Positions 25,280 to 64,000 are shown, numbered from the stretch's first letter. The stretch: DNA of 64,000 bases from a virus (IMGVR_UViG_3300044825_001821:108440-172439), one strand, 5' to 3'. A program made the numbers and translations. Notes: generated by a model from the letters alone, not told the origin.

Positions 25280-25682
25280 CGTAAAACTTATAAGAATGCA
25301 GACTGGTGAAGATATTATGGCTTCTATGTTTGAGCAGGAAGATTCAGAACAGATACAACTCAATGATCCGATGCGTTTAGTGTTTCGTCGTATGCCCACA
25401 GGCCAAACTGTTATGATGATGATGCCATGGCTGCCAGTTGAATTGATCAAAGAAAACTCTGCCCTAATATATTCTTCCGATATCGTCACAGTTATTGAAC
25501 CAAAAGAAGCAATGATAAGATACTATGATAAACTTGTTGAGCGTACATTAGAAGAGATGGCAGACTCAGATAAAATACTTGACAGTTTATTAGACGAGCA
25601 AGAAGAGGAAGAAGAAGTAAACGAATTGCCTGAGCAGCTAATAGAATTTTTAAAAGACACCAACACTAAAAAATTACACTGA
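25272..25682 (+). CDS. Conserved T4-like hypothetical (Sm-like fold) downstream of uvsW
   Basis: VKLIRMQTGEDIMA...MMPW pattern; typical syntenic position. Confidence 0.55.
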   Translation: MHNVKLIRMQTGEDIMASMFEQEDSEQIQLNDPMRLVFRRMPTGQTVMMMMPWLPVELIKENSALIYSSDIVTVIEPKEAMIRYYDKLVERTLEEMADSDKILDSLLDEQEEEEEVNELPEQLIEFLKDTNTKKLH

Positions 25683-26470
25683 TGAATCTTTTTTTATATC
25701 AAGCGTATTACGAAAAAGCACAAATGAAACACTTGGATTCAGTTTGTGTTCCTTACGACAATACAGCAAATTTAACACCAGAACTAAGAGAATATCCTTT
25801 TGTAAAAAATCTATATGAGATTCATGCAAAGAATGAAGATGATCATTGGGGTTTACTCTCATGGAGATGGTACGATAAAACTAAACTTGAAATGAAGGAA
25901 TTTAAAGAATGGATACTAGCCAATCCAGGCTATGATGTATATCATCTTGATCCATTCTTAGATGTTGCTTCAACTCATATGAATCTATGGGTTCAAGGTG
26001 ACATATGGCATCCTGGAATGATAGATTTTGGTAACAAATTGCTACCTAAAATGGGTTTGAATTTTGATCTGAGAGAACTACTGTATCATCCTGATGATTT
26101 TGCTACATGCAACTATCATGTAGGAAACAAAAAGTTTTGGAAAAGCTACATCAGTTTTATAGATCATTGTTTAAATTTGATTGAGAATGATGAAGAACTC
26201 AAAGAATTTATGTATGAAAAGAAAAGATTATACAATGGCGCTATGCTTCCAAATTTTAGTTTTGTAATAGAGAGGTTGTTTAGTATACACAGTATTTGCA
26301 ATAGACATATAAAGATTAAAAAATTTCCATTTGAAAACGAAAGTTACGAACGATTATTTGGTAGCAACTACTCTTTATATCTTGATTTGTATAACCAAAG
26401 AAAAGAACATTATGAAATGATGTTGAAAAATCATGAGGAAAATTATGATACGAGAGTTGAATTGGTATGA
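25682..26470 (+). CDS. Hypothetical protein, possibly glycosyltransferase-like
   Basis: Aromatic-rich; WGLLSWR, CNY, FVIERLF; heads a sugar cassette. Confidence 0.4.
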   Translation: MNLFLYQAYYEKAQMKHLDSVCVPYDNTANLTPELREYPFVKNLYEIHAKNEDDHWGLLSWRWYDKTKLEMKEFKEWILANPGYDVYHLDPFLDVASTHMNLWVQGDIWHPGMIDFGNKLLPKMGLNFDLRELLYHPDDFATCNYHVGNKKFWKSYISFIDHCLNLIENDEELKEFMYEKKRLYNGAMLPNFSFVIERLFSIHSICNRHIKIKKFPFENESYERLFGSNYSLYLDLYNQRKEHYEMMLKNHEENYDTRVELV

Positions 26471-27236
26471 AATAAAAGAAAGTTTTCAATCATCAATACC
26501 TTTTAATCATGTTGTGATTGACAATTTTTTTATACCTGAAGTAGCAGATAAAATTTCTGAAGAGTTTCCAGACTTCTACGACTCTTCGTTGAACGATCAC
26601 CACAGCCCATTGGAAATTAAAAAAACAATGAATCGTTGGGATCGTTTTCCACCAACAACATATAGAGCATTTAGTTTTTTAAATTCACGTAATTTTGTGG
26701 AGAGACTATCTCATCTAGTTGATAGAGATGACTTAGTTTCTGACCCAGGCCTTAATGGCGGTGGTTGGCACATGCATACACGTGGTGGCAATAATAACAT
26801 ACACTTAGACTATAATGTTCATCCCAAACTAAATCTTCAACGCAAACTTAATATTATTGTTTATCTTACCAAAGATTGGCAGTCAGCATGGAAAGGTGGA
26901 CTAGAACTTTGGTCACACGATGAAGTACAAAAGGAACCTCTACAAAAAGTTCACACAATAGAAAACAAATTCAATAGGGCAATTGTTTTTGATACAACAC
27001 AAAACTCTTGGCATGGGCTTCCAAATAGTATAGAATGTCCATTAGGAGTTGTTCGCAAGTCTATAGCTGCCTATTATCTTTGTGCTGCCCCTGCTATAAC
27101 TGAAGAGCGTGGTCGTGCATTGTTTGCTCCTAGAGAAGAACAAAAAAATGATGAGTCGATAAAAGAACTTATCAAGAAAAGAGCATCCGTGTCACAATCA
27201 GCATCAGTGTACAATACAAAACATTCAGAGAAATAA
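26445..27236 (+). CDS. 2OG-Fe(II) oxygenase
   Basis: PFNHVVIDNF, GGGWH, HLD...H (SWHG), RKSIA; alternative start 26433. Confidence 0.88.
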   Translation: MIRELNWYEIKESFQSSIPFNHVVIDNFFIPEVADKISEEFPDFYDSSLNDHHSPLEIKKTMNRWDRFPPTTYRAFSFLNSRNFVERLSHLVDRDDLVSDPGLNGGGWHMHTRGGNNNIHLDYNVHPKLNLQRKLNIIVYLTKDWQSAWKGGLELWSHDEVQKEPLQKVHTIENKFNRAIVFDTTQNSWHGLPNSIECPLGVVRKSIAAYYLCAAPAITEERGRALFAPREEQKNDESIKELIKKRASVSQSASVYNTKHSEK

Positions 27237-27250
27237 TTGAAAGGTATATA

Positions 27251-28300
27251 ATGTCAAAGCGTGTTCTTATTACAGGTGGTGCTGGTTTTATCGGCCATCA
27301 TATCATTGATTTGTTTTTACAAAAAACAGATTGGACAATCGTATCACTTGATCGATTAGATTATTCTGGTAATTTAAATCGTTTACATGATGTAGTTCAT
27401 AGATACCCACCTGATGTTCGTAAAAGAGTTAAGATTGTCTGGCACGATTTAAAGTCTGAGATACAAGACCTTACACAAAATCTTATTGGTGATGTCAATA
27501 TCATTCTTCATTTGGCTGCATCATCACATGTTGATAGATCAATTACTTACCCTATGGAATTTTTGATGGACAACACTGTAGGCACAGTGAATGTTTTAAA
27601 TTTCGCACGTAAGCTAAAGAATCTTGAAAGAATGATTTACTTTTCAACTGATGAGATTTTTGGCATTGCACCTAATGGTGTTGCATATGCAGAACGTGAT
27701 CGTTACAACTCAACCAATCCTTATTCTGCATCCAAAGCTGCTGCCGAAGAATTTTGTGTAGCATATGAAAACACATACAAGCTACCTATTTTTATTACAC
27801 ATACAATGAATGTGTTTGGTGAACGTCAACATCCAGAGAAGTTTGTACCCATGAGCATTCGTAAAGTTCGTGATGGACAAACTATCTACATTCATTCCGA
27901 TCCTTCTAAAACTGTGCCAGGCTCACGATTCTATATTCACGCCAAAGATGTTGCAGAAGCAATGTACTTCTTGTTACATTTGAATGAAGAACAAAACAAA
28001 ATAATTTACACACCAGACTATGGTGGTGCTAAATGTCCTAAGTTTAATGTTGTAGGTAGAGAAGAAGTTGACAATCTTCAATTAGTCAAACTTGTTGCTG
28101 AAGCACAAAACAAAGAATTGAAATATGAGATGGTTGACTTTCACACTTCAAGACCTGGTCATGATTTGCGTTATGCATTATCAGGAGACTTTATGCGTCA
28201 GTTAGGATGGGAGCCACAACACTCATTCAAGGATCGTATTAAAGAAGTTGTTGATTGGTCAATAGCAAACCCAGAATGGATTGAGTTGAGTGGAGAATAA
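27251..28300 (+). CDS. NDP-glucose 4,6-dehydratase (RmlB-like extended SDR)
   Basis: TGGAGFIG, HLAASSHVDRSI, STDE, YSASK, RPGHDLRY. Confidence 0.92.
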   Translation: MSKRVLITGGAGFIGHHIIDLFLQKTDWTIVSLDRLDYSGNLNRLHDVVHRYPPDVRKRVKIVWHDLKSEIQDLTQNLIGDVNIILHLAASSHVDRSITYPMEFLMDNTVGTVNVLNFARKLKNLERMIYFSTDEIFGIAPNGVAYAERDRYNSTNPYSASKAAAEEFCVAYENTYKLPIFITHTMNVFGERQHPEKFVPMSIRKVRDGQTIYIHSDPSKTVPGSRFYIHAKDVAEAMYFLLHLNEEQNKIIYTPDYGGAKCPKFNVVGREEVDNLQLVKLVAEAQNKELKYEMVDFHTSRPGHDLRYALSGDFMRQLGWEPQHSFKDRIKEVVDWSIANPEWIELSGE

Positions 28301-28301
28301 T

Positions 28302-29513
28302 ATGTCGAATGTAACCAAAGTAGATAGATGTATTGCATGTGATTATGATACTCTATCGCATACTTTAGATTTAGGTAATCAACCATTAGCAAACTCTTTT
28401 ACACCAACGAAAGAAAAACAAGAAGAATATCCTTTAGCAATCAATCGTTGTTTGAATTGTAATCATCTTCAACTAACACATATTGTCGATCCAGAATTAA
28501 TTTATAAGAACTATGCGTATGTGAGCGGTACTACAAAAACATACGTTGATTACATGGATTGGTTTGCAAAATGGGTAAGAGAATATTCTGGTCACTACTA
28601 TGGTCACGTTCTTGATATCGGTTGCAATGATGGAACTCAACTAGATGCTTTTGCCCGTATAGGATTCAGAACATATGGTGTTGATCCTGCCGAGAACTTA
28701 CATCAAATAAGCACATCAAAAGGACATAAAGTTGTTTGTGGTTTCTGGAATAAACAAACAATTCAAGAGTTACATACTGGTGCTACACGGTTTGATGTAG
28801 CAGTTTCACAAAATGCATTTGCTCATATACCAGACCCACACACATATTTGAAGTTGCTACGACCATTGATTGCTGATGATGGTTTGTTTTTCATTCAGAC
28901 AAGTCAAGCTGACATGGTATTAAATGGAGAGTTTGATACAATTTATCATGAGCATATCAGTTTCTATAACATCAACTCAATGAGAGAATTGGCCACACGT
29001 TCTGGATGGAATCTTGTTGATGTTGTTAAAACACCTATACATGGTACAAGTTATGTTTTTATTTTGAGTCCAAATAAATCAAAACCACAAAACATAAAGA
29101 ATCTGATTGAGATGGAATCTAAACTACAGAAACCTATAACTTATACACTGTGGGCTTTTGGTGTTGAACAGATTAAAAATGAATTTAAAAAAGTTTGTGC
29201 AGAGTATAGAGAAAAAGGATATAGACTTGTTGGTTATGGTGCAGCCGCTAAAGGTATGACTCTTCTGAATTACGTAAAAGAAGAACTAGATTTTATTATT
29301 GATGATAATCCTTTGAAGCAGTATCATTACACACCTGGACTTAATATACCAATTACTTCTGTAGTCGAACTTGATGATGTAGAAGAACCTATTTGCTTCA
29401 TTCCTTTGGCATGGAATTTCTTTGATGAGATAGTTAAAAGAATTAGAGATCGTAGAGTAGATTCTAGGGATAAGTATGTAAGATACTTTCCTAAAGTTGG
29501 AGTACAAGAATAA
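28302..29513 (+). CDS. NDP-hexose C3-methyltransferase (zinc-binding, TcaB9/EryBIII type)
   Basis: CIAC...CLNC zinc site, DIGCNDG SAM motif, FDTIYHEH, YGAAAKG, LAWNF. Confidence 0.9.
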   Translation: MSNVTKVDRCIACDYDTLSHTLDLGNQPLANSFTPTKEKQEEYPLAINRCLNCNHLQLTHIVDPELIYKNYAYVSGTTKTYVDYMDWFAKWVREYSGHYYGHVLDIGCNDGTQLDAFARIGFRTYGVDPAENLHQISTSKGHKVVCGFWNKQTIQELHTGATRFDVAVSQNAFAHIPDPHTYLKLLRPLIADDGLFFIQTSQADMVLNGEFDTIYHEHISFYNINSMRELATRSGWNLVDVVKTPIHGTSYVFILSPNKSKPQNIKNLIEMESKLQKPITYTLWAFGVEQIKNEFKKVCAEYREKGYRLVGYGAAAKGMTLLNYVKEELDFIIDDNPLKQYHYTPGLNIPITSVVELDDVEEPICFIPLAWNFFDEIVKRIRDRRVDSRDKYVRYFPKVGVQE

Positions 29514-29514
29514 A

Positions 29515-30054
29515 ATGACAACCAATAATCACTACGTAAACAACGCAGACTTTCTGGCAGCACTAATTAAGTATAGAACAGATTGTGAAGATGCGAAAAA
29601 AAATAATACTTCAGAGCCAAAAGTTCCAGATTATATTGGTGAGTGTTTTCTAAAGATTGCAGAACATCTATCACGTAAACCAAACTTTATTTCTTACACA
29701 TATCGTGATGAAATGATATCTGATGGTGTAGAAAACTGTCTGATGTATTTTCGTAATTTTGATCCAGCTAAGTCTAAGAATCCATTTGCTTACTTCACAC
29801 AGATAATTTACTATGCATTTCTGCGTAGAATTATGCGTGAGAAGAAACAATTGTATGTGAAGTACAAAGCCACACAACAGTTCGGTTTGCTTGATGAAGG
29901 TGAAATGTACGAGGATGAGAATGGTAACATGAAACAGTTTGAGTTGTACGACAACATCTCAGAGTTTATTCATAACTTCGAAGAAAACAAAAAGAAAAAG
30001 AAAGCTAAAAAAATTGTTGGTCTTGATAATTTTCTTGATGGTGAGGCTGAATAA
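29515..30054 (+). CDS. gp55: Late-transcription sigma factor gp55
   Basis: HYVNN, YIGECFLKIA, NPFAYFTQIIYYAFLRRI. Confidence 0.97.
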   Translation: MTTNNHYVNNADFLAALIKYRTDCEDAKKNNTSEPKVPDYIGECFLKIAEHLSRKPNFISYTYRDEMISDGVENCLMYFRNFDPAKSKNPFAYFTQIIYYAFLRRIMREKKQLYVKYKATQQFGLLDEGEMYEDENGNMKQFELYDNISEFIHNFEENKKKKKAKKIVGLDNFLDGEAE

Positions 30055-30485
30055 TGAAAGTAGGATTCAACTGTAGCACATTTGATTTGTTTCATGCCGG
30101 GCATGTAGCTATGCTCAAAGAAGCAAAACGTCACTGTGATTACCTGATAATAGCAATACAAACTGACCCTACTATTGATAGGCCAGAAAAAAATAAACCT
30201 ATACAATCAATCTATGAAAGATTTGTGCAAGTCTCTGGTTGCAAATATGTCGATGAAATACTTGTATATTCTACCGAAGAAGATTTATTAAATCTGTTAA
30301 AAACACAACACATTGACATAAGATTTCTTGGCGAAGATTATATAGGTAAAGACTTTACTGGCAGACAGTGGTGTATTGACAACGGAATCGAAATACACTA
30401 TCATAGTAGAAAACATTCTTACAGTAGCACCGAACTCAGATTGAGGGTGCAACGAGCCGAAGAACAAAAATTAAATTGGTCATAG
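30054..30485 (+). CDS. Glycerol-3-phosphate cytidylyltransferase-like (TagD family)
   Basis: FDLFHAGH (HxGH), ERF..V..CKYVDE, YSSTELR. Confidence 0.88.
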   Translation: MKVGFNCSTFDLFHAGHVAMLKEAKRHCDYLIIAIQTDPTIDRPEKNKPIQSIYERFVQVSGCKYVDEILVYSTEEDLLNLLKTQHIDIRFLGEDYIGKDFTGRQWCIDNGIEIHYHSRKHSYSSTELRLRVQRAEEQKLNWS

Positions 30486-55961: not shown

Positions 55962-57318
55962 GGACTATGCACGAAAAATTATTCCGTTCTTAAAAAACGA
56001 ATACTTCTCAGATACGACTGATCGAATTCTTTTTCAGGAAATCAATGAACATATTCATCAATTCAAACATCTTCCTACCTACGAATCACTTGTAATTAAT
56101 TTTACTGAATCACGTAAACTGACAGAAGAACAAGTCAGAGATGCAGTTGAAATGATTCGTGAAATCAACGCCGACAAAGAAAATCCTACTGATACAGACT
56201 GGCTTATCAAACAAACTGAAAAGTTTTGTCAAGATAAAGCAATTTATAATGCCATCATGAAGTCTGTCAAAATTCTTGATGATAGAGAAAACAAAGATGG
56301 TAAAGGTGCCATACCAAAGATGCTATCTGATGCACTTGGTGTTTCATTTGACAATTCTGTTGGTCATGATTATATCGACGATTCGGATAATCGTTTTGAA
56401 TTCTATCATCGTCATGAAACAAAGATACCATTTGATCTTGATCTATTTAACAAGATTACCAAAGGCGGTCTGCCAAAGAAAACACTGAACATTGCACTTG
56501 CTGGTACTGGTGTTGGTAAGTCACTGTTCATGTGTCACGTTGCTGGTTCATGTTTATCACAAGGTCTGAATGTGTTGTACATCACGATGGAAATGGCCGA
56601 AGAAAGAATTGCTGAACGTATTGATGCCAATCTATTGAACATTGATATTGCAGACCTGAACTCTATCAGTAAACAAGATTATGATCGAAAGTTCTCTGCA
56701 CTCAAAGTCAACACACAAGGCAAACTCATCATCAAAGAGTATCCGACCGCTGCGGCATCTGCATTACACTTTCGTGCTTTGTTAAATGAATTGCAACTAA
56801 AGAAAAGTTTCAAACCTGACATCATCTTTATTGACTATCTTAACATTTGTGCAAGTGCTAGAATCAAGCCTGGTGCTAACGTAAATAGTTATTCTTATGT
56901 TAAGGCCATTGCAGAGGAATTGAGGGGTCTAGCGGTCGAGTTTGATGTTCCTATAGTCTCTGCTACACAGACCACCAGAAGCGGCTTCACAAGCTCGGAT
57001 CCAGGTCTAGAAGATACTTCAGAATCGTTTGGTCTGCCAGCTACGGCCGACTTCATGTTTGCTTTGATAAGCACAGAAGAGTTGCAACAATTGAATCAGA
57101 TACTAATTAAGCAACTCAAGAATCGTTACAATGATCCGAATTATTTCAAAAGATTTGTCGTGGGTATTGACAGAGCCAAAATGAAACTGTATGATGTTGA
57201 ACAGGGCGCACAAGATGATCTAATAGATGCTGGTCAGGTACCGCCCGATAAACCTTTGAATACCTTCGGAGATCGTGAAAGACGCTCAAATGATAAGTTC
57301 GGGGGTTTCAAAGTATAA
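55918..57318 (+). CDS. gp41: Replicative DnaB-like helicase gp41
   Basis: LAGTGVGKS, IDYLNI, SESFGLPATAD, QLKNRY. Confidence 0.98.
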   Translation: MKLETTILKNLIFNEDYARKIIPFLKNEYFSDTTDRILFQEINEHIHQFKHLPTYESLVINFTESRKLTEEQVRDAVEMIREINADKENPTDTDWLIKQTEKFCQDKAIYNAIMKSVKILDDRENKDGKGAIPKMLSDALGVSFDNSVGHDYIDDSDNRFEFYHRHETKIPFDLDLFNKITKGGLPKKTLNIALAGTGVGKSLFMCHVAGSCLSQGLNVLYITMEMAEERIAERIDANLLNIDIADLNSISKQDYDRKFSALKVNTQGKLIIKEYPTAAASALHFRALLNELQLKKSFKPDIIFIDYLNICASARIKPGANVNSYSYVKAIAEELRGLAVEFDVPIVSATQTTRSGFTSSDPGLEDTSESFGLPATADFMFALISTEELQQLNQILIKQLKNRYNDPNYFKRFVVGIDRAKMKLYDVEQGAQDDLIDAGQVPPDKPLNTFGDRERRSNDKFGGFKV

Positions 57319-57321
57319 ATA
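57314..57321 (+). promoter_or_regulatory. T4 late promoter TATAAATA
   Basis: Exact consensus overlapping the gp41 stop. Confidence 0.8.
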
Positions 57322-59379: not shown

Positions 59380-59648
59380 GTTACGATATCAATAAGATTT
59401 TAGCAGAATATGCAGATGATGACTTTGGCTTCAGCACCGTAGATGAAGTTGAATATCAAGCAGTCATTGCAGAGAAAGATGAAACTGTTGAGGAATATAA
59501 ACAAAGACTTCAACAAGTAGAAAAGATTATCATGCCTTTTCTGACAAATTTATATAAGACTGCAAATCAACCATACATTCACTGGCCTAATCGTGGTCCT
59601 ATTATTGAGAAACAAATGCAGAAGATTCTTACATTGACGAGGGGCTAA
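59376..59648 (+). CDS. Hypothetical protein
   Basis: DFGFSTVDE...PYIHWPNR. Confidence 0.6.
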
Positions 59649-59968
59649 TGTTCAACATTACATCAACTGCCGCAAAGAAAATTAAATCAATCATTGATGA
59701 AGAAAATCCTGATTTGAAACTACGTGTGTTCGTACAGGGTGGTGGTTGCACAGGTTTTCAGTATGGCTTTACACTTGAAGAGCAATCAGAAGCCGATGAT
59801 CATGTGTTTGAACGTGATGGCATACAGGTTGTTATAGATAGTATTAGTATGCATTATGTAAATGATGCGGAAATTGATTATGAAGAATCATTGATGGGTT
59901 CACAATTCAAAATCAAAAATCCTAATGTAACTGCAACTTGCGGTTGTGGTTCATCATTTGCCGTATGA
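59648..59968 (+). CDS. erpA: A-type Fe-S cluster carrier (ErpA/IscA)
   Basis: [26 protein letters not shown]. Confidence 0.93.
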
Positions 59969-60375: not shown

Positions 60376-61218
60376 ATGAAGGATTGTATCGTGGGGTGTT
60401 CGACCAACTATGATTGGTCGAAGTTAAAATATTGGGTAAACTCAATCAACGCATCAGGCTTTGAAGGTGATAAAGTTCTGATTCTCATGAACTGCGACAA
60501 AGATACCGTACAAAAGGTAACTGACGCAGGCTTCTCAATCATAGCATTCAATCAAGATGGTGATGGTAATTTAAGCTATCAATCACAATTGATGGTGCAT
60601 GTTGAGCGATTTGTTCACATTTACAAACTTCTGAAAGACAACGACTATCGTTATGTGATTACCACAGATGTGAGAGATGTTATCTTTCAAAAAAATCCTG
60701 TTGATTGGCTAGAAGAAAATCTTTCTACCCGAGAAGATTTGGTATTCTCATCTGAAAGCATGAAATACAAAGATGAACCATGGGGTCGTGAAAACATTAC
60801 ACAATGTTATGGACAAGGTATCTATGAAGATTTTAAAAACAATACTATTTTTAATGTTGGTGTGATTGCAGGTCGTGGTTATGCAATGAAAGATTTAGCA
60901 TTACAACTGTTTTTAAACTGTATTAATAGACCAATACCAATTGTTGATCAAGCAGTATTCAATGTAATGATTTCAAGACATCCATATATTGATTCGTCAA
61001 TGTATACTGAATCAGAATACGGTTGGGCATGTCAATTAGGTACAACTGCCGATCCGAGTAAGATTGATCAATTCAGACCGCATCTACTAGAATCATCACC
61101 GAAATTAGAAGGCGATAAGGTTGTAACTTCAAAGGGAATAGAGTATACTATTGTACATCAGTATGATCGTGTTCCAGAGTGGCGTAAAGTGATTGAGGCA
61201 AAATATGACGACAAGTAA
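60376..61218 (+). CDS. Glycosyltransferase-like protein (GT-A)
   Basis: ERF, TDVRDV (DxD-like), NVGVIAG, DQAVFN, IVHQYDR. Confidence 0.65.
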   Translation: MKDCIVGCSTNYDWSKLKYWVNSINASGFEGDKVLILMNCDKDTVQKVTDAGFSIIAFNQDGDGNLSYQSQLMVHVERFVHIYKLLKDNDYRYVITTDVRDVIFQKNPVDWLEENLSTREDLVFSSESMKYKDEPWGRENITQCYGQGIYEDFKNNTIFNVGVIAGRGYAMKDLALQLFLNCINRPIPIVDQAVFNVMISRHPYIDSSMYTESEYGWACQLGTTADPSKIDQFRPHLLESSPKLEGDKVVTSKGIEYTIVHQYDRVPEWRKVIEAKYDDK

Positions 61219-61927
61219 AATAGCACTTTGTATTTCAGGTCAACCAAGAATGGTTGAAGCGGGGCATTACTATCATTTGAAAAATATTTTGTATAAAAAT
61301 GATGTAACAGTTTTTCTTCACACTTGGGAAAATGAAAACGATCTTCATGAACAAGCCCTTGATCTGTATCAACCAGCTGGTGCAATTGTTGAGCAGCCTT
61401 TAGAAATAGATTTATCAGCATATACTAACACACCTCCTCCTTCTCCAAATTGGAAGGTTAAGGATGGTCGTATGTCAACATATGCACAAATGTATGCAAT
61501 TTATCATACCATGAAATTAAAGCAAGAATATGAAAAAAATAATTCAATGAAGTTTGATTGGGTTATTCGTTCAAGATTTGATTTTGCTATTAATACTCGT
61601 ATACCTTTTGATCAATTAGACAACTCTAAGTTGCATATACCAAACTGTCGCATGACACCAGATCGTGATTTTGGTAATGATCAGTTTGCATTTTCTTCAT
61701 CAGAGAATATGAACAAGTATGCTGAGGTGTTTAAAAACTATGATGAATTTTATAAACAAGGCATACAGTTTATGATGGAAGATTTCATGAGTGCTAACTG
61801 GAAAAAGTATGGTCTTGTTGGTGAAAAACTAGTATACTGTGATGTCAATCATCCATTTCCTCCAGGCGAATACAATGGCACATGGCACTCTTTACTACGT
61901 GAGGACATGGAAGAATGGCTGAAGTAA
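61205..61927 (+). CDS. Glycan-biosynthesis-associated protein, possible glycosyltransferase
   Basis: KIALCISGQPR, FLHTW, FDWVIRSRFD, NDQFA. Confidence 0.55.
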   Translation: MTTSKIALCISGQPRMVEAGHYYHLKNILYKNDVTVFLHTWENENDLHEQALDLYQPAGAIVEQPLEIDLSAYTNTPPPSPNWKVKDGRMSTYAQMYAIYHTMKLKQEYEKNNSMKFDWVIRSRFDFAINTRIPFDQLDNSKLHIPNCRMTPDRDFGNDQFAFSSSENMNKYAEVFKNYDEFYKQGIQFMMEDFMSANWKKYGLVGEKLVYCDVNHPFPPGEYNGTWHSLLREDMEEWLK

Positions 61928-62643
61928 ATCTTGTTATTTGCATGGCGGGTTACAACACCCGCTTTCATGACGTTGGTTTTGATATTCCAAAGTATCTGTT
62001 GCCTTGGAATGGTAAGACAATCATTCATGATATCATAAAGAATCTACACACAGATTGCCGTGTGCTTCTTGTTGCGAACAAACGTGATGTTTATTTTCAA
62101 GATCAACTTCTTGAAACGATTGCACCTTTTGATTTGAATGAAAAGAATATTCTGTATATTGGTGACACAAAAGGCCAAGCACATACAGCAGCGATTGGTA
62201 TTGATTATCTGAATCATCCAGAGTTGCCAACTTTCATTCACAACGGAGACACGATTGTGACTGGTCGTAATTTGAAATCGATAAGTGAAATGTTGGCTTA
62301 TCCATATACAGCATATGTTGATGTATTCATTGGCAACTCACCAAAATATTCTTATGTTCGTGCATATGAAGGCGTCGTTACAGAAATAGTTGAGAAGAAA
62401 CAGATATCGCCATACGCATCATCAGGCCTGTATGGCTTTGAATCTGGCAATAGATATCTTGAATACTACAACAAACTTCATTCGGATGACGAACTTTATA
62501 TTTCAAATGTAATTCAGAGTATGATTGCAGATGATAAGTCTGCGTTCATGAATGGTTTAGCAACAAATCAAGAAACAATTGTTTTAGGTAGTCCACAAGA
62601 ATATGGTATTGAAGTAGCAAGACAAACATTGGGTGCGAAATGA
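61915..62643 (+). CDS. Sugar-phosphate nucleotidyltransferase
   Basis: ICMAGYNTRF...PKYLL, TKGQAHT, NGD, EKK, SGLYGF, ELYIS, LGSP. Confidence 0.85.
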   Translation: MAEVNLVICMAGYNTRFHDVGFDIPKYLLPWNGKTIIHDIIKNLHTDCRVLLVANKRDVYFQDQLLETIAPFDLNEKNILYIGDTKGQAHTAAIGIDYLNHPELPTFIHNGDTIVTGRNLKSISEMLAYPYTAYVDVFIGNSPKYSYVRAYEGVVTEIVEKKQISPYASSGLYGFESGNRYLEYYNKLHSDDELYISNVIQSMIADDKSAFMNGLATNQETIVLGSPQEYGIEVARQTLGAK

Positions 62644-63605
62644 AAACGATTGAACTTAAAGGTGGCTCACTGAGCAAAACTTATTGGATACCAGACCAGA
62701 ACATTGTTCGTAAAGAAATATCACGCACGAAGAATCGTGAATATGGTTTTGTTCGTTGGTATTCACAGTTGATGAAACTGCAACACTTCAATCAGATTTA
62801 TCCTGGTCTGTTTCCAGAAGTTGTTGCTATTGGTTCTACTGGTGTTGATGCATGGTTTGATTTAAAATATCTAGAAGGATTTCGTGATATCAAATCTATT
62901 CTGAGTGGTGAACCACTCAAAGAAGAAACAATATTCAAAATCAGTAAAGCAGTATGGAAAGGTTTGAACACAATACATTCTTTTGGTAGAACGCCAATTT
63001 CTGGAGCGCCATCACTTTACTTCCGTGAAGAGATACATCAAAAGTTGATGGATGCATTGAAGATACCAGCATTTGGTGAATTCTTCGAAAAAGGTAATTA
63101 TTGGTTAAACAGTAAAGAAGTAATTGGTCTTACTGGCACACTAGCAATTCATGGTCCTGTGTATGAATTCTTTTCAAATTTAGAAAATGATGATGAGTGT
63201 AACATTCATGGCAATCCTACATTAGAAAACATCATGTATTCTTTTGAAGAGGACCGTGTAATGTTCATTGACACATACGAAGAAAGTATGTGGAACACAA
63301 AATATCTTGATTATGCACAAGTTCTTCAGTGTTCACGTAGTCATTATGGTTTCATCAATGATCGTGATATTCGTGTAGTCGGAAATGACTTCTTCAATCC
63401 AAATACAATACCAAGTAACTTTGAAGTATTCAACAACCACTTCATGTCCGAACTGCCAGAAGATAAAATGAAACTTATAGATATATTGGAAGCATCACAA
63501 TTTATTCGTATGCTTCCATTCAAATTAATTGCTGGCGATATAAACAAAGCAAGATATTTTTATGTACATGCGGCAAAATTGTTTCATGAGGCTTTAGATG
63601 AGTGA
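62640..63605 (+). CDS. Aminoglycoside-phosphotransferase / choline-kinase-fold kinase
   Basis: LKGGSLS loop, HGNPTLENI (Brenner-like), FID, DYAQ. Confidence 0.72.
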   Translation: MKTIELKGGSLSKTYWIPDQNIVRKEISRTKNREYGFVRWYSQLMKLQHFNQIYPGLFPEVVAIGSTGVDAWFDLKYLEGFRDIKSILSGEPLKEETIFKISKAVWKGLNTIHSFGRTPISGAPSLYFREEIHQKLMDALKIPAFGEFFEKGNYWLNSKEVIGLTGTLAIHGPVYEFFSNLENDDECNIHGNPTLENIMYSFEEDRVMFIDTYEESMWNTKYLDYAQVLQCSRSHYGFINDRDIRVVGNDFFNPNTIPSNFEVFNNHFMSELPEDKMKLIDILEASQFIRMLPFKLIAGDINKARYFYVHAAKLFHEALDE

Positions 63606-64000
63606 TGAGTTTATGATGGACTATGACAAGTTCAAACGAACTTGGAAAGTAAAAACAGAACTACCAGTAGAATTCAAATTAACATATTCGGCTGACATAT
63701 TTAATCCGAGTAACCAAGATATAGCAAATTTATCCAATAGTCATCGTAGAGTGATTGTGATAGATACTGAAGTTTGGGATTTATATAAATCAAAAATCGA
63801 TGAATATTTTGGTGTCACAAAACTTGAATCACAAATACTGATTATTGACTGTAAAGAAGAAAACAAGAACTGGAAAAATGTAGATGAAATTGTCACCTTT
63901 TTTGAAAAACAGGGAGTTCTTCGTCGTGAAAAGATTATCGCCATTGGTGGTGGTGTTCTCCTTGACATTGTTGGGTTTGCTTGCAGCATATATCGTCGTG
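63598..64000 (+). CDS. Sugar-phosphate cyclase, probably sedoheptulose 7-phosphate cyclase (EEVS/DDGS type) rather than DHQS; 3' truncated, absent from the ORF track
   Basis: Manual translation: MSDEF...WKVKTELPVEF...DIFNPSN...RRVIVIDTEVWDLY...EENK...GVLRREKIIAIGGGVLLDIVGFACSIYRR. Confidence 0.8.
   Translation, partial: MSDEFMMDYDKFKRTWKVKTELPVEFKLTYSADIFNPSNQDIANLSNSHRRVIVIDTEVWDLYKSKIDEYFGVTKLESQILIIDCKEENKNWKNVDEIVTFFEKQGVLRREKIIAIGGGVLLDIVGFACSIYRR

Follow-up and report, generated by a model that had tools for sequence, protein, structure and literature searches.

What is a C7-sugar cyclase doing among the glycosyltransferase-like genes of a phage? The question arises from the end of a 64,000-nucleotide stretch of viral DNA, IMGVR_UViG_3300044825_001821:108440-172439 (the window), which is the terminal 64 kb (G000:C1:108440-172439) of a 172,439-bp IMG/VR virus record. 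An island of seven genes, with neighbours overlapping by 4-14 nt, starts there at position 60376 and runs past the window edge. Sequence comparisons indicate that these genes probably turn sedoheptulose 7-phosphate into a nucleotide-activated C7 carbasugar for a glycan. We assign a probability of about 0.6 to the whole proposal, i.e., a phage glycan-building locus whose precursor module makes this donor and whose GT-A-like glycosyltransferases (GTs) transfer it to an acceptor.

The source is an uncultured freshwater T4-like phage, with UvsX, DnaB-like helicase and gp55-region genes in the surroundings. An origin in surface-water metagenomes is suggested by the sample sources. The complete genome contains neither psbA nor transaldolase, and for that reason the phage is probably not a cyanophage.

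The cyclase and its island

The features discussed below are listed in gene order. Positions beyond the window edge are in L003 contig coordinates, which correspond to those of C1 (e.g., L003:128-861 = C1:128-861).

60376-61218, plus strand: GT280, first island gene, a 280-aa probable GT-A-like transferase (PHROG 1579 'glycosyltransferase', E 5.7e-6)
61205-61927, plus strand: DUF7796 protein of 240 aa, modelled with a GT6-like GT-A fold (Pfam DUF7796, E 3.5e-6, just under the cut-off; PHROG 13607, E 6e-24)
61915-62643, plus strand: 242-aa sugar-1-phosphate-type nucleotidyltransferase (Pfam NTP_transferase, E 1e-9)
62640-63605, plus strand: kin321, a 321-aa APH-fold small-molecule kinase-like protein, proposed cyclitol 1-kinase (AlphaFold/Foldseek)
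63598-64000, then G000:C1:128-861 (L003:128-861), plus strand: sedoheptulose-7-phosphate cyclase of the 2-epi-5-epi-valiolone synthase (EEVS) type, 378 aa, of which the N-terminal 134 aa lie in the window (open reading frame, PDB phmmer, active-site pattern)
63874-64000, no strand: 127-bp terminal repeat, 100% identical to G000:C1:1-127, within the cyclase gene
L003:858-1526, beyond the window edge: classical short-chain reductase (SDR) with TGxxxGxG and YxxxK motifs, overlapping the cyclase by 4 nt
L003:1514-2239, beyond the window edge, after the SDR: u241, a third GT-A-like gene of 241 aa (ESM Atlas model)

A preliminary description of the window had noted an open reading frame (ORF) from ATG 63598 to the window edge, with the NAD loop of the 3-dehydroquinate synthase (DHQS) superfamily, at the end of a chain of translationally coupled genes. 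The ORF and the overlaps were found as described. ORF listing placed the upstream genes at 60376-61218, 61193/61205-61927, 61915-62643 and 62640-63605; ATG 61205, rather than TTG 61193, is most likely the start of the DUF7796 gene. None of the seven island proteins has a membrane-spanning segment.

The record carries a 127-bp direct terminal repeat, belongs to the IMG/VR class of direct terminal repeats and is rated complete. Because the repeat lies inside the cyclase gene, this gene is whole on the circularly permuted genome, and its cut at the window edge is an artefact of linearisation. The reading frame has no stop before the window end; it resumes in frame at C1:128 and stops at C1:861, giving 378 aa. 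The downstream sequence, which the preliminary description had recommended obtaining, thus completed the cyclase and added the SDR and third GT-A-like genes. P0001, a metagenomic protein with 12 differences, was used as a full-length stand-in for the cyclase.

The cyclase contains the N- and C-terminal domains of the DHQS fold and the Gly-rich NAD loop IAIGGGVLLD (PF01761, PF24621). Pfam matched the in-window part to DHQ_synthase (E 3e-11) and the rest to DHQ_synthase (E 1e-33) and DHQS_C (E 1e-19). All motifs quoted in the preliminary description are present in the translation (IAIGGGVLLDIVG, TWKV...DIFNPSN, HRRVIVIDTEVWDLY, LRRE and IYRRG), and structural relatives agree with its preference for a sedoheptulose-7-phosphate cyclase over a shikimate DHQS. 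The top solved relative in a PDB phmmer search was ValA (4p53), with 295 bits, E 5e-87 and approximately 50% identity over the full length. Scores were 217 bits for 5tpr, which we take to be the Anabaena DDGS, a sunscreen-pathway cyclase, at most 137 bits for DHQS and 90 bits for the 2-deoxy-scyllo-inosose synthase 2d2x (DOIS).

The C-terminal active-site residues gave the same picture. In the alignment, the metal ligands (Glu, His, His) of the cyclase equal those of ValA, and its segments VDFGH, LHGEA and KHRNG align with VDFGH, LHGEA and KHRDG. The phage cyclase and ValA share the Asp in VDFGH and the His in KHR(N/D)G, presumably D281 and H360 in ValA numbering; the corresponding residues are Ala and Thr in 5tpr and Asn and Lys in DHQS. 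In both the cyclase and ValA, Ser-Pro replaces the second His of the DHQS motif GHTFGHAIE. ValA is a 2-epi-5-epi-valiolone synthase; the literature gives 4p53 as its structure and describes fingerprint sites that tell EEVS from DDGS (PMC4426668). At the ten active-site and fingerprint positions that could be mapped from alignments (of 14 published fingerprint sites), the cyclase is identical to ValA (DHSPHEHREK, 10/10). The same pattern occurs in all phage copies, in the bacterial cassette copies described below and in 53 of 144 aligned sequences, the alignment consisting of 138 database representatives and six copies from phages and metagenome-assembled genomes (MAGs).

By these sequence criteria, the enzyme is a sedoheptulose-7-phosphate cyclase of EEVS type and not AroB. 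Annotation pipelines are divided: many relatives are named '2-epi-5-epi-valiolone synthase' by the JGI pipeline and some 3-dehydroquinate synthase, and the best NCBIfam model is aroB, below its cut-off (196 vs 305 bits, on 286 aa). Among GenBank phages, tblastn with the cyclase retrieved only host-derived aroB at around 30% identity, and megablast with the 10-kb region gave no match. PHROGs has no family for the cyclase or kin321.

Enzymes and transferases next to the cyclase

The kinase assignment comes from structure prediction. No Pfam, NCBIfam or PHROG family matched kin321, and a profile of its family gave nothing significant against PDB sequences. Its AlphaFold model (pLDDT 92) matched APH(2''), fructosamine-3-kinase, methylthioribose kinase and NahK in Foldseek at probability 1.0 and TM 0.5-0.57, with 3jr1 among the structures matched, and has the bilobal kinase fold. 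The APH-type fold proposed earlier for this protein thus holds in the model. In 23 kin321 sequences, the KGGSLS loop, K25, H190-G-N192, E196-N197 and D211 are invariant, so that by position the Gly-rich loop, the ATP-binding Lys and the Mg-binding Asp appear to be kept (KGGSLS, K25, N197, D211).

The overlapping upstream gene encodes the nucleotidyltransferase, whose family and coupling to the cyclase chain had been correctly recognised before; its closest solved relative is 4evw, a 'nucleoside-diphosphate-sugar pyrophosphorylase' (E 3e-11).

Of the two GT-like genes that had been noticed upstream, the DUF7796 gene fits this description well and GT280 less so. The AlphaFold model of the DUF7796 protein (pLDDT 87, pTM 0.88) has ABO GTA/GTB, alpha-1,3-GalT and BoGT6a as top Foldseek matches (probability 1.0, TM around 0.5), and the protein thus models as a GT6-like retaining GT-A transferase. 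It lacks a clear, classical DXD motif; after the equivalent strand it has RSRFDF, in which R122, R124 and D126 do not vary. T4-like phages of Synechococcus that lack the cyclase have distant homologues of the protein. The signals for GT280 are PHROG 1579 and, within its family, matches of four of ten members to Pfam GT_PLOD (best E 4.7e-4) and of one to Nucleotid_trans (E 0.004), while a family profile gave nothing significant against PDB sequences. We therefore call it a glycosyltransferase only tentatively. The ESM Atlas model of u241 resembles GT8 and DUF1647 GT-A proteins (TM 0.67-0.68). No relationship among the three families was found by hhalign, for which the alignments were shallow.

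Most sister phages carry a 230-aa Methyltransf_24/CmcI-like gene of the sugar O-methyltransferase type between GT280 and DUF7796 (L013:6657-7349 and equivalents). It is absent from the present phage, where GT280 and DUF7796 overlap directly.

The cassette in sister phages and bacteria

One indication of what the cyclase is for comes from related loci in which it is missing. Sister loci were anchored on the conserved upstream gene DUF6267, and 25 had enough downstream DNA for comparison. The core of nucleotidyltransferase, kinase, cyclase and SDR genes (the cassette) was present in 18 and absent in seven (L099 (4670-7445), L057, L092, L103, L107, L109 and L110). All seven retain GT280, whose identity among sister phages, whether or not they have a cyclase, is 63-94%; four of them also retain DUF7796 and u241. 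Three of these four have, in the slot between DUF7796 and u241, genes for an APH-family kinase of 248 aa, an NTP-transferase-like/HAD protein of 339 aa and an NDP-sugar (nucleoside diphosphate sugar) epimerase/dehydratase. The fourth, L110, likewise has all three transferases, together with a HAD-like protein and a similar kinase of the APH family. In the other three loci, which keep only GT280, the region encodes a GT4, a methyltransferase and a fusion of HAD and NTP transferase.

On this comparison, the island looks like a glycan locus in which the precursor (donor) module can be exchanged. Because the cassette stands where an ordinary kinase-nucleotidyltransferase-modifier module sits in relatives, the comparison supports a nucleotide-activated donor as its product. 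It also changes the view of the transferases, which had been read as part of a cyclitol pathway: since they persist in sister phages without the cyclase, they are not dedicated pseudoglycosyltransferases.

Every one of the 26 viral loci retrieved with the cyclase has the gene order nucleotidyltransferase, kinase, cyclase, SDR. A distant viral lineage (L027/L028, cyclase identity 66-71%) shares only these four genes, preceded by other GT8-, GT2- and GT29-like genes and a methyltransferase. The same four-gene order was found in at least six non-phage loci, once with an aldo-keto reductase in place of the SDR:

L030, MAG contig: cassette with Wza, Wzz, GT4 and acyltransferase genes
P0127, two contigs: cassette with WecG, GT2, GT4 and Wzx flippase genes
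L034, 262-kb gammaproteobacterial MAG contig: cassette with housekeeping genes, a GT2 gene and the gene of a 2,407-aa PKD protein
L033, Lake Mendota MAG: cassette
L111, contig: cassette with GT2, GT47 and two Methyltransf_24 genes
P0129, contig: cassette with Wzx and two GT4 genes

In L034 (368-7591), the gene for the 2,407-aa protein, which has PKD-like repeats, lies approximately 1.7 kb upstream of the cassette; two small genes separate them, and the GT2 gene comes after the cassette. This large protein is possibly a glycosylated surface protein.

Phage and bacterial cassette proteins are 31-47% identical for the kinase and 39-56% for the nucleotidyltransferase in the same position. The kinase accompanies the cyclase in every locus examined (26 phage loci, the 18 of the sister-loci comparison and six non-phage loci), so that the lack of co-occurrence which the preliminary description had named as part of a refutation was not observed, and P0123 is a natural kinase-cyclase fusion (kinase part 36% identical, E 1e-44). 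In P0139, the cyclase is fused to an NTP transferase and a hexapeptide domain. Other EEVS-type cyclases are fused to ROK kinases, a HAD phosphatase or an AMP-binding enzyme (P0130/P0135, P0174, P0131). A profile scan of genome contigs with the kinase alignment gave only two loci; it needed exact peptide patterns and says little on prevalence.

In a FastTree cyclase tree, the phage copies and two MAG copies form one clade (support 0.99), nested in an 18-taxon group (support 0.978) with P0125, P0126, P0127 and P0129, whose contigs carry the cassette. The more distant EEVS homologue P0132 (44% identity) occurs in a natural-product-type cluster with an MFS exporter, a ROK kinase, HAD and ADH. A search of the available literature library for EEVS or sedoheptulose-7-phosphate cyclases together with phages or viruses, or with O-antigen or capsule, gave nothing relevant, and no paper describing the cassette was found.

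Proposed product, acceptor and alternatives

In the pathway that we propose, the cyclase, judged by its enzyme type, would convert host sedoheptulose 7-phosphate to 2-epi-5-epi-valiolone with loss of the phosphate. The adjacent classical SDR would reduce the C1 ketone to a pseudo-anomeric hydroxyl. With the phosphate gone after cyclisation, nucleotidyl transfer requires a kinase first, and kin321, with its modelled APH fold, may phosphorylate the pseudo-anomeric hydroxyl as anomeric kinases like NahK do. The nucleotidyltransferase, placed in its family by sequence, would then make the NDP-cyclitol. Since the cassette lacks an epimerase and a dehydratase, its product is more likely a saturated valiolol-type cyclitol than a valienol. 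Finally, at least one of the three soluble GT-A-like proteins could add the cyclitol, along with other sugars, to a cytoplasmic acceptor, most likely a virion protein and less likely a host envelope precursor. The four-gene core would have been exchanged with bacterial surface-glycan loci; in this phage lineage, it occupies a slot that holds an ordinary sugar-activation module in other members. The earlier suggestion of an NDP-activated carbocycle thus stands as far as the coupled cyclase, kinase and nucleotidyltransferase are concerned; the options of DNA decoration and a UV screen, which had accompanied it, are unlikely, as discussed below.

Regarding the acceptor, no Wzx, Wzy or priming enzymes occur with the phage island. 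The same genome has a second nucleotide-sugar module at 25682-29513, with genes for an uncharacterised 262-aa protein, a 2OG-Fe(II) oxygenase, an NDP-sugar 4,6-dehydratase and a C-methyltransferase of zinc-finger type (Methyltransf_13/14), and after it, at 30054-30485, a small cytidylyltransferase-like gene. Together with the solubility of the transferases and the lack of Wzx, Wzy and priming enzymes, this second module suggests that the acceptor is cytoplasmic. We favour virion proteins, for which the glycosylation systems of mycobacteriophages and chloroviruses offer an analogy. The tripeptide [AGS]-N-[TVI] was observed 159 times vs 83 expected from within-protein shuffles in the structural and fibre genes (C1:82000-124000, reaching about 15200 in the window), and 84 times vs 75 expected elsewhere; all 11 [AGS]NT.T motifs are in the structural region. 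As an indication of glycosylation sites on virion proteins this is a weak lead, and fibre repeats alone could explain the enrichment.

The closest known chemistry is the GDP-valienol branch of acarbose and validamycin synthesis (AcbC/ValA, AcbM/ValC, AcbO, AcbL, AcbN, AcbU, AcbJ, AcbR/VldB and AcbS/VldE), a route of approximately nine enzymes (PMC9200736). Its cyclase ValA is approximately 50% identical to that of the phage. As in the proposed phage pathway, sedoheptulose 7-phosphate is the starting compound, and a ketoreductase, a kinase and a nucleotidyltransferase lead to a C7 cyclitol, activated as its NDP ester, that passes to a transferase (PMC9200736). The validamycin/acarbose logic that had been suggested for the island is nevertheless not reproduced. 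The phage has four enzymes and a kinase of APH fold, and neither among the seven coupled genes nor among their neighbours did we find a ROK 7-kinase, 2-epimerase, dehydratase or phosphatase. Unlike AcbS (GT5) and VldE (GT20), its transferases are GT6-like, GT8/DUF1647-like and weakly PLOD-GT-like, and the setting is that of phage and bacterial surface-glycan loci instead of an actinomycete secondary-metabolite cluster.

Other known systems share parts of the arrangement. In the salvage pairs NahK, AmgK-MurU and LicA-LicC, as in the phage, an APH-fold kinase is directly coupled to an enzyme of the NTP_transferase family; NahK is a structural match of kin321, and sister phages have a more ordinary pair of this kind in the same slot. 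Unlike the substrates of these pairs, that of kin321 would come from a dedicated cyclase and reductase instead of being scavenged, and kin321 differs from the salvage kinases in its Asn at the catalytic Asp position and in belonging to no Pfam family. The GDP-heptose pathway (GmhA, HddA, GmhB, HddC) also diverts sedoheptulose 7-phosphate via a kinase and a nucleotidyltransferase to a C7 donor for surface glycans; its first enzyme is an isomerase that keeps a true sugar, in contrast to the carbocycle-making cyclase, and its kinase is of the GHMP family instead of the APH fold. Chlorovirus capsid glycans are made by virus-encoded glycosyltransferases. With these and with mycobacteriophage virion glycosylation, the island and its relatives share soluble viral glycosyltransferase clusters, methyltransferases (in relatives) and independence of Wzx/Wzy. 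Those glycans use ordinary or methylated sugars, and virion glycosylation by the phage island is putative; to our knowledge, no viral glycan machinery of this kind has been reported to make a carbocyclic donor.

Several points weigh against the proposed pathway, whose steps are inferred from sequence, fold and gene context. The main caveat concerns the word kinase: the catalytic loop of kin321, H190-G-N192-P-T-L-E-N197 (HGNxTLEN), has Asn at the usual catalytic Asp position of HxDxxxxN, N192 being equated with that Asp by motif and spacing and not by structural superposition. This Asn is invariant in the 23 sequences, including phage, bacterial and fused versions. The EEVS-type label does not separate EEVS from its stereochemical variant EVS. 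The cassette has neither the epimerase nor the dehydratase needed for GDP-valienol, the allylic donor, and GT-A enzymes that transfer a saturated carbasugar to oxygen would be without precedent. All natural pseudo-oligosaccharides known so far are C-N linked, and the known pseudoglycosyltransferases resemble GT5 or GT20 and depend on an amine nucleophile (PMC9200736). The phage transferases also occur without the cyclase, and none is tied specifically to the cyclitol. Lastly, the nearest promoters upstream of the island, TATAAATA at 57314 and a sigma70-like site at 57167, do not settle the timing of its expression.

The absent epimerase and dehydratase and the unprecedented GT-A transfer keep two alternatives alive, both of which we consider improbable. 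One is that the NDP-cyclitol acts as a donor of the 'CDP-alcohol' type, from which cyclitol phosphate is added by a phosphodiester bond, as occurs with choline phosphate (LicA, LicC, LicD), ribitol phosphate or glycerol phosphate. In choline phosphate decoration, the LicA kinase and the LicC nucleotidyltransferase serve together with LicD, and the cassette has the same pairing of an APH-fold kinase with an NTP_transferase-family enzyme. Such a route would also sidestep the difficult displacement at a carbocyclic carbon that is stressed in the literature (PMC9200736). However, a LicD- or TagF-type phosphotransferase is missing from the phage genome, and the transferases adjoining the cassette look like GT-A glycosyltransferases.

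In the other, to which we give a similarly small chance, the cyclitol or its NDP ester is itself the end product, a soluble sugar mimic that blocks a glycosidase or glycosyltransferase of the host or a competitor during infection, and the GT-like genes serve an unrelated glycan. Validamycin, acarbose and streptol are C7 cyclitols that mimic sugars, and the occurrence of the transferases without the cyclase would fit this role. A 2026 review raises the possibility that nucleotidylated streptol enters glycan synthesis. Gene context argues for a donor instead: the bacterial cassettes lie inside Wzx/Wzy-type polysaccharide loci and not with exporters, the natural-product-type MFS/ROK/HAD cluster goes with the other EEVS homologue, P0132 (44% identity), and the ordinary NDP-sugar module in the slot of sister phages points to a donor for the same transferases.

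Decoration of phage DNA, which had been listed among the possible targets, is very unlikely. T4-like phages are the classic case of sugar-modified DNA, with T-even glucosylation of hydroxymethylcytosine as the model, and the island's transferases are soluble. The complete genome lacks a ThyA-family hydroxymethylase (PF00303; control genomes gave matches), so that there would be no hydroxymethyl pyrimidine to glycosylate. Moreover, the bacterial counterparts are in surface-glycan loci, and the phage transferases are GT-A-like, whereas the T4 DNA glucosyltransferases are GT-B enzymes.

We see scarcely any likelihood of a UV sunscreen of the gadusol or mycosporine type, another of the earlier suggestions, although EEVS starts gadusol synthesis in vertebrates (PMC4426668) and the phage appears, from its sample sources, to come from surface water. 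Within the cluster and next to it, the cyclase is accompanied by neither an MT-Ox fusion nor an O-methyltransferase or ATP-grasp gene, the methyltransferase of the relatives being absent here. Sunscreen synthesis has no use for a kinase and a nucleotidyltransferase, and the cyclase belongs to the EEVS type and not to the DDGS type. That the cyclase is an ordinary AroB raising shikimate synthesis in the host, as the sub-threshold NCBIfam aroB match and some JGI names might suggest, can be dismissed almost entirely in view of the ValA score (295 bits vs at most 137 for any DHQS), the Asp, Pro and His (presumed ValA D281, the Pro of the Ser-Pro pair and presumed ValA H360) where DHQS has Asn, His and Lys, and the lack of any other shikimate gene nearby.

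C7 cyclitols are otherwise familiar from antibiotics and antidiabetic drugs, from toxins of plant symbionts and from sunscreens. Their producers, chiefly actinomycetes, cyanobacteria and animals, rely on long dedicated pathways. A route of just four enzymes to a nucleotide-activated carbasugar, in T4-like phages abundant in lakes and oceans and in surface-glycan loci of planktonic bacteria, would bring this chemistry into glycobiology. Cell or virion surfaces would then be expected to carry pseudo-sugars that resist hydrolysis, and the route would provide a new class of cyclitol kinase and simple enzymes for NDP-carbasugars, useful as probes or inhibitors of glycosyltransferases. It is a tentative idea that the phages and planktonic bacteria sharing the cassette build glycoconjugates with a C7 carbasugar, held by a bond that ordinary glycosidases cannot cut. 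If true, this would be the first carbasugar glycan and the first cyclitol pathway of a virus; it would imply either that GT-A enzymes perform a new transfer chemistry or that a virion protein bears an amine-linked pseudo-glycoside. The exchangeable precursor slot would then be a form of phage 'serotype' variation, and the swap, with different donors for the same transferases, is a natural experiment that makes the question testable.

A few features surround the island. Far upstream, the sigma70-like promoter at 57167 is near-consensus (TTGACA-17-TATGAT; window 57167-57321), and both this site and the T4-type late motif TATAAATA at 57314 stand ahead of the long same-strand gene run that contains the island. 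A promoter and terminator scan scored no better than shuffles and gave no convincing terminator within that run. Just upstream of the island, 59648-59968 encodes a 106-aa iron-sulphur cluster assembly protein of the HesB/IscA type (PF01521, E 4.5e-21), which is kept in sister phages. On the other side, L003:8314-9627 encodes a 437-aa protein that contains a domain like that of the HicA toxin (PF07927, E 2e-9); the genes nearby include no obvious HicB partner. Directly after the island, L003:2282-5023 (C1:2282-5023) encodes a 913-aa protein, conserved in sister phages, with cytidylyltransferase-like and Zeta-toxin/AAA-type kinase domains and a long uncharacterised C-terminal part.

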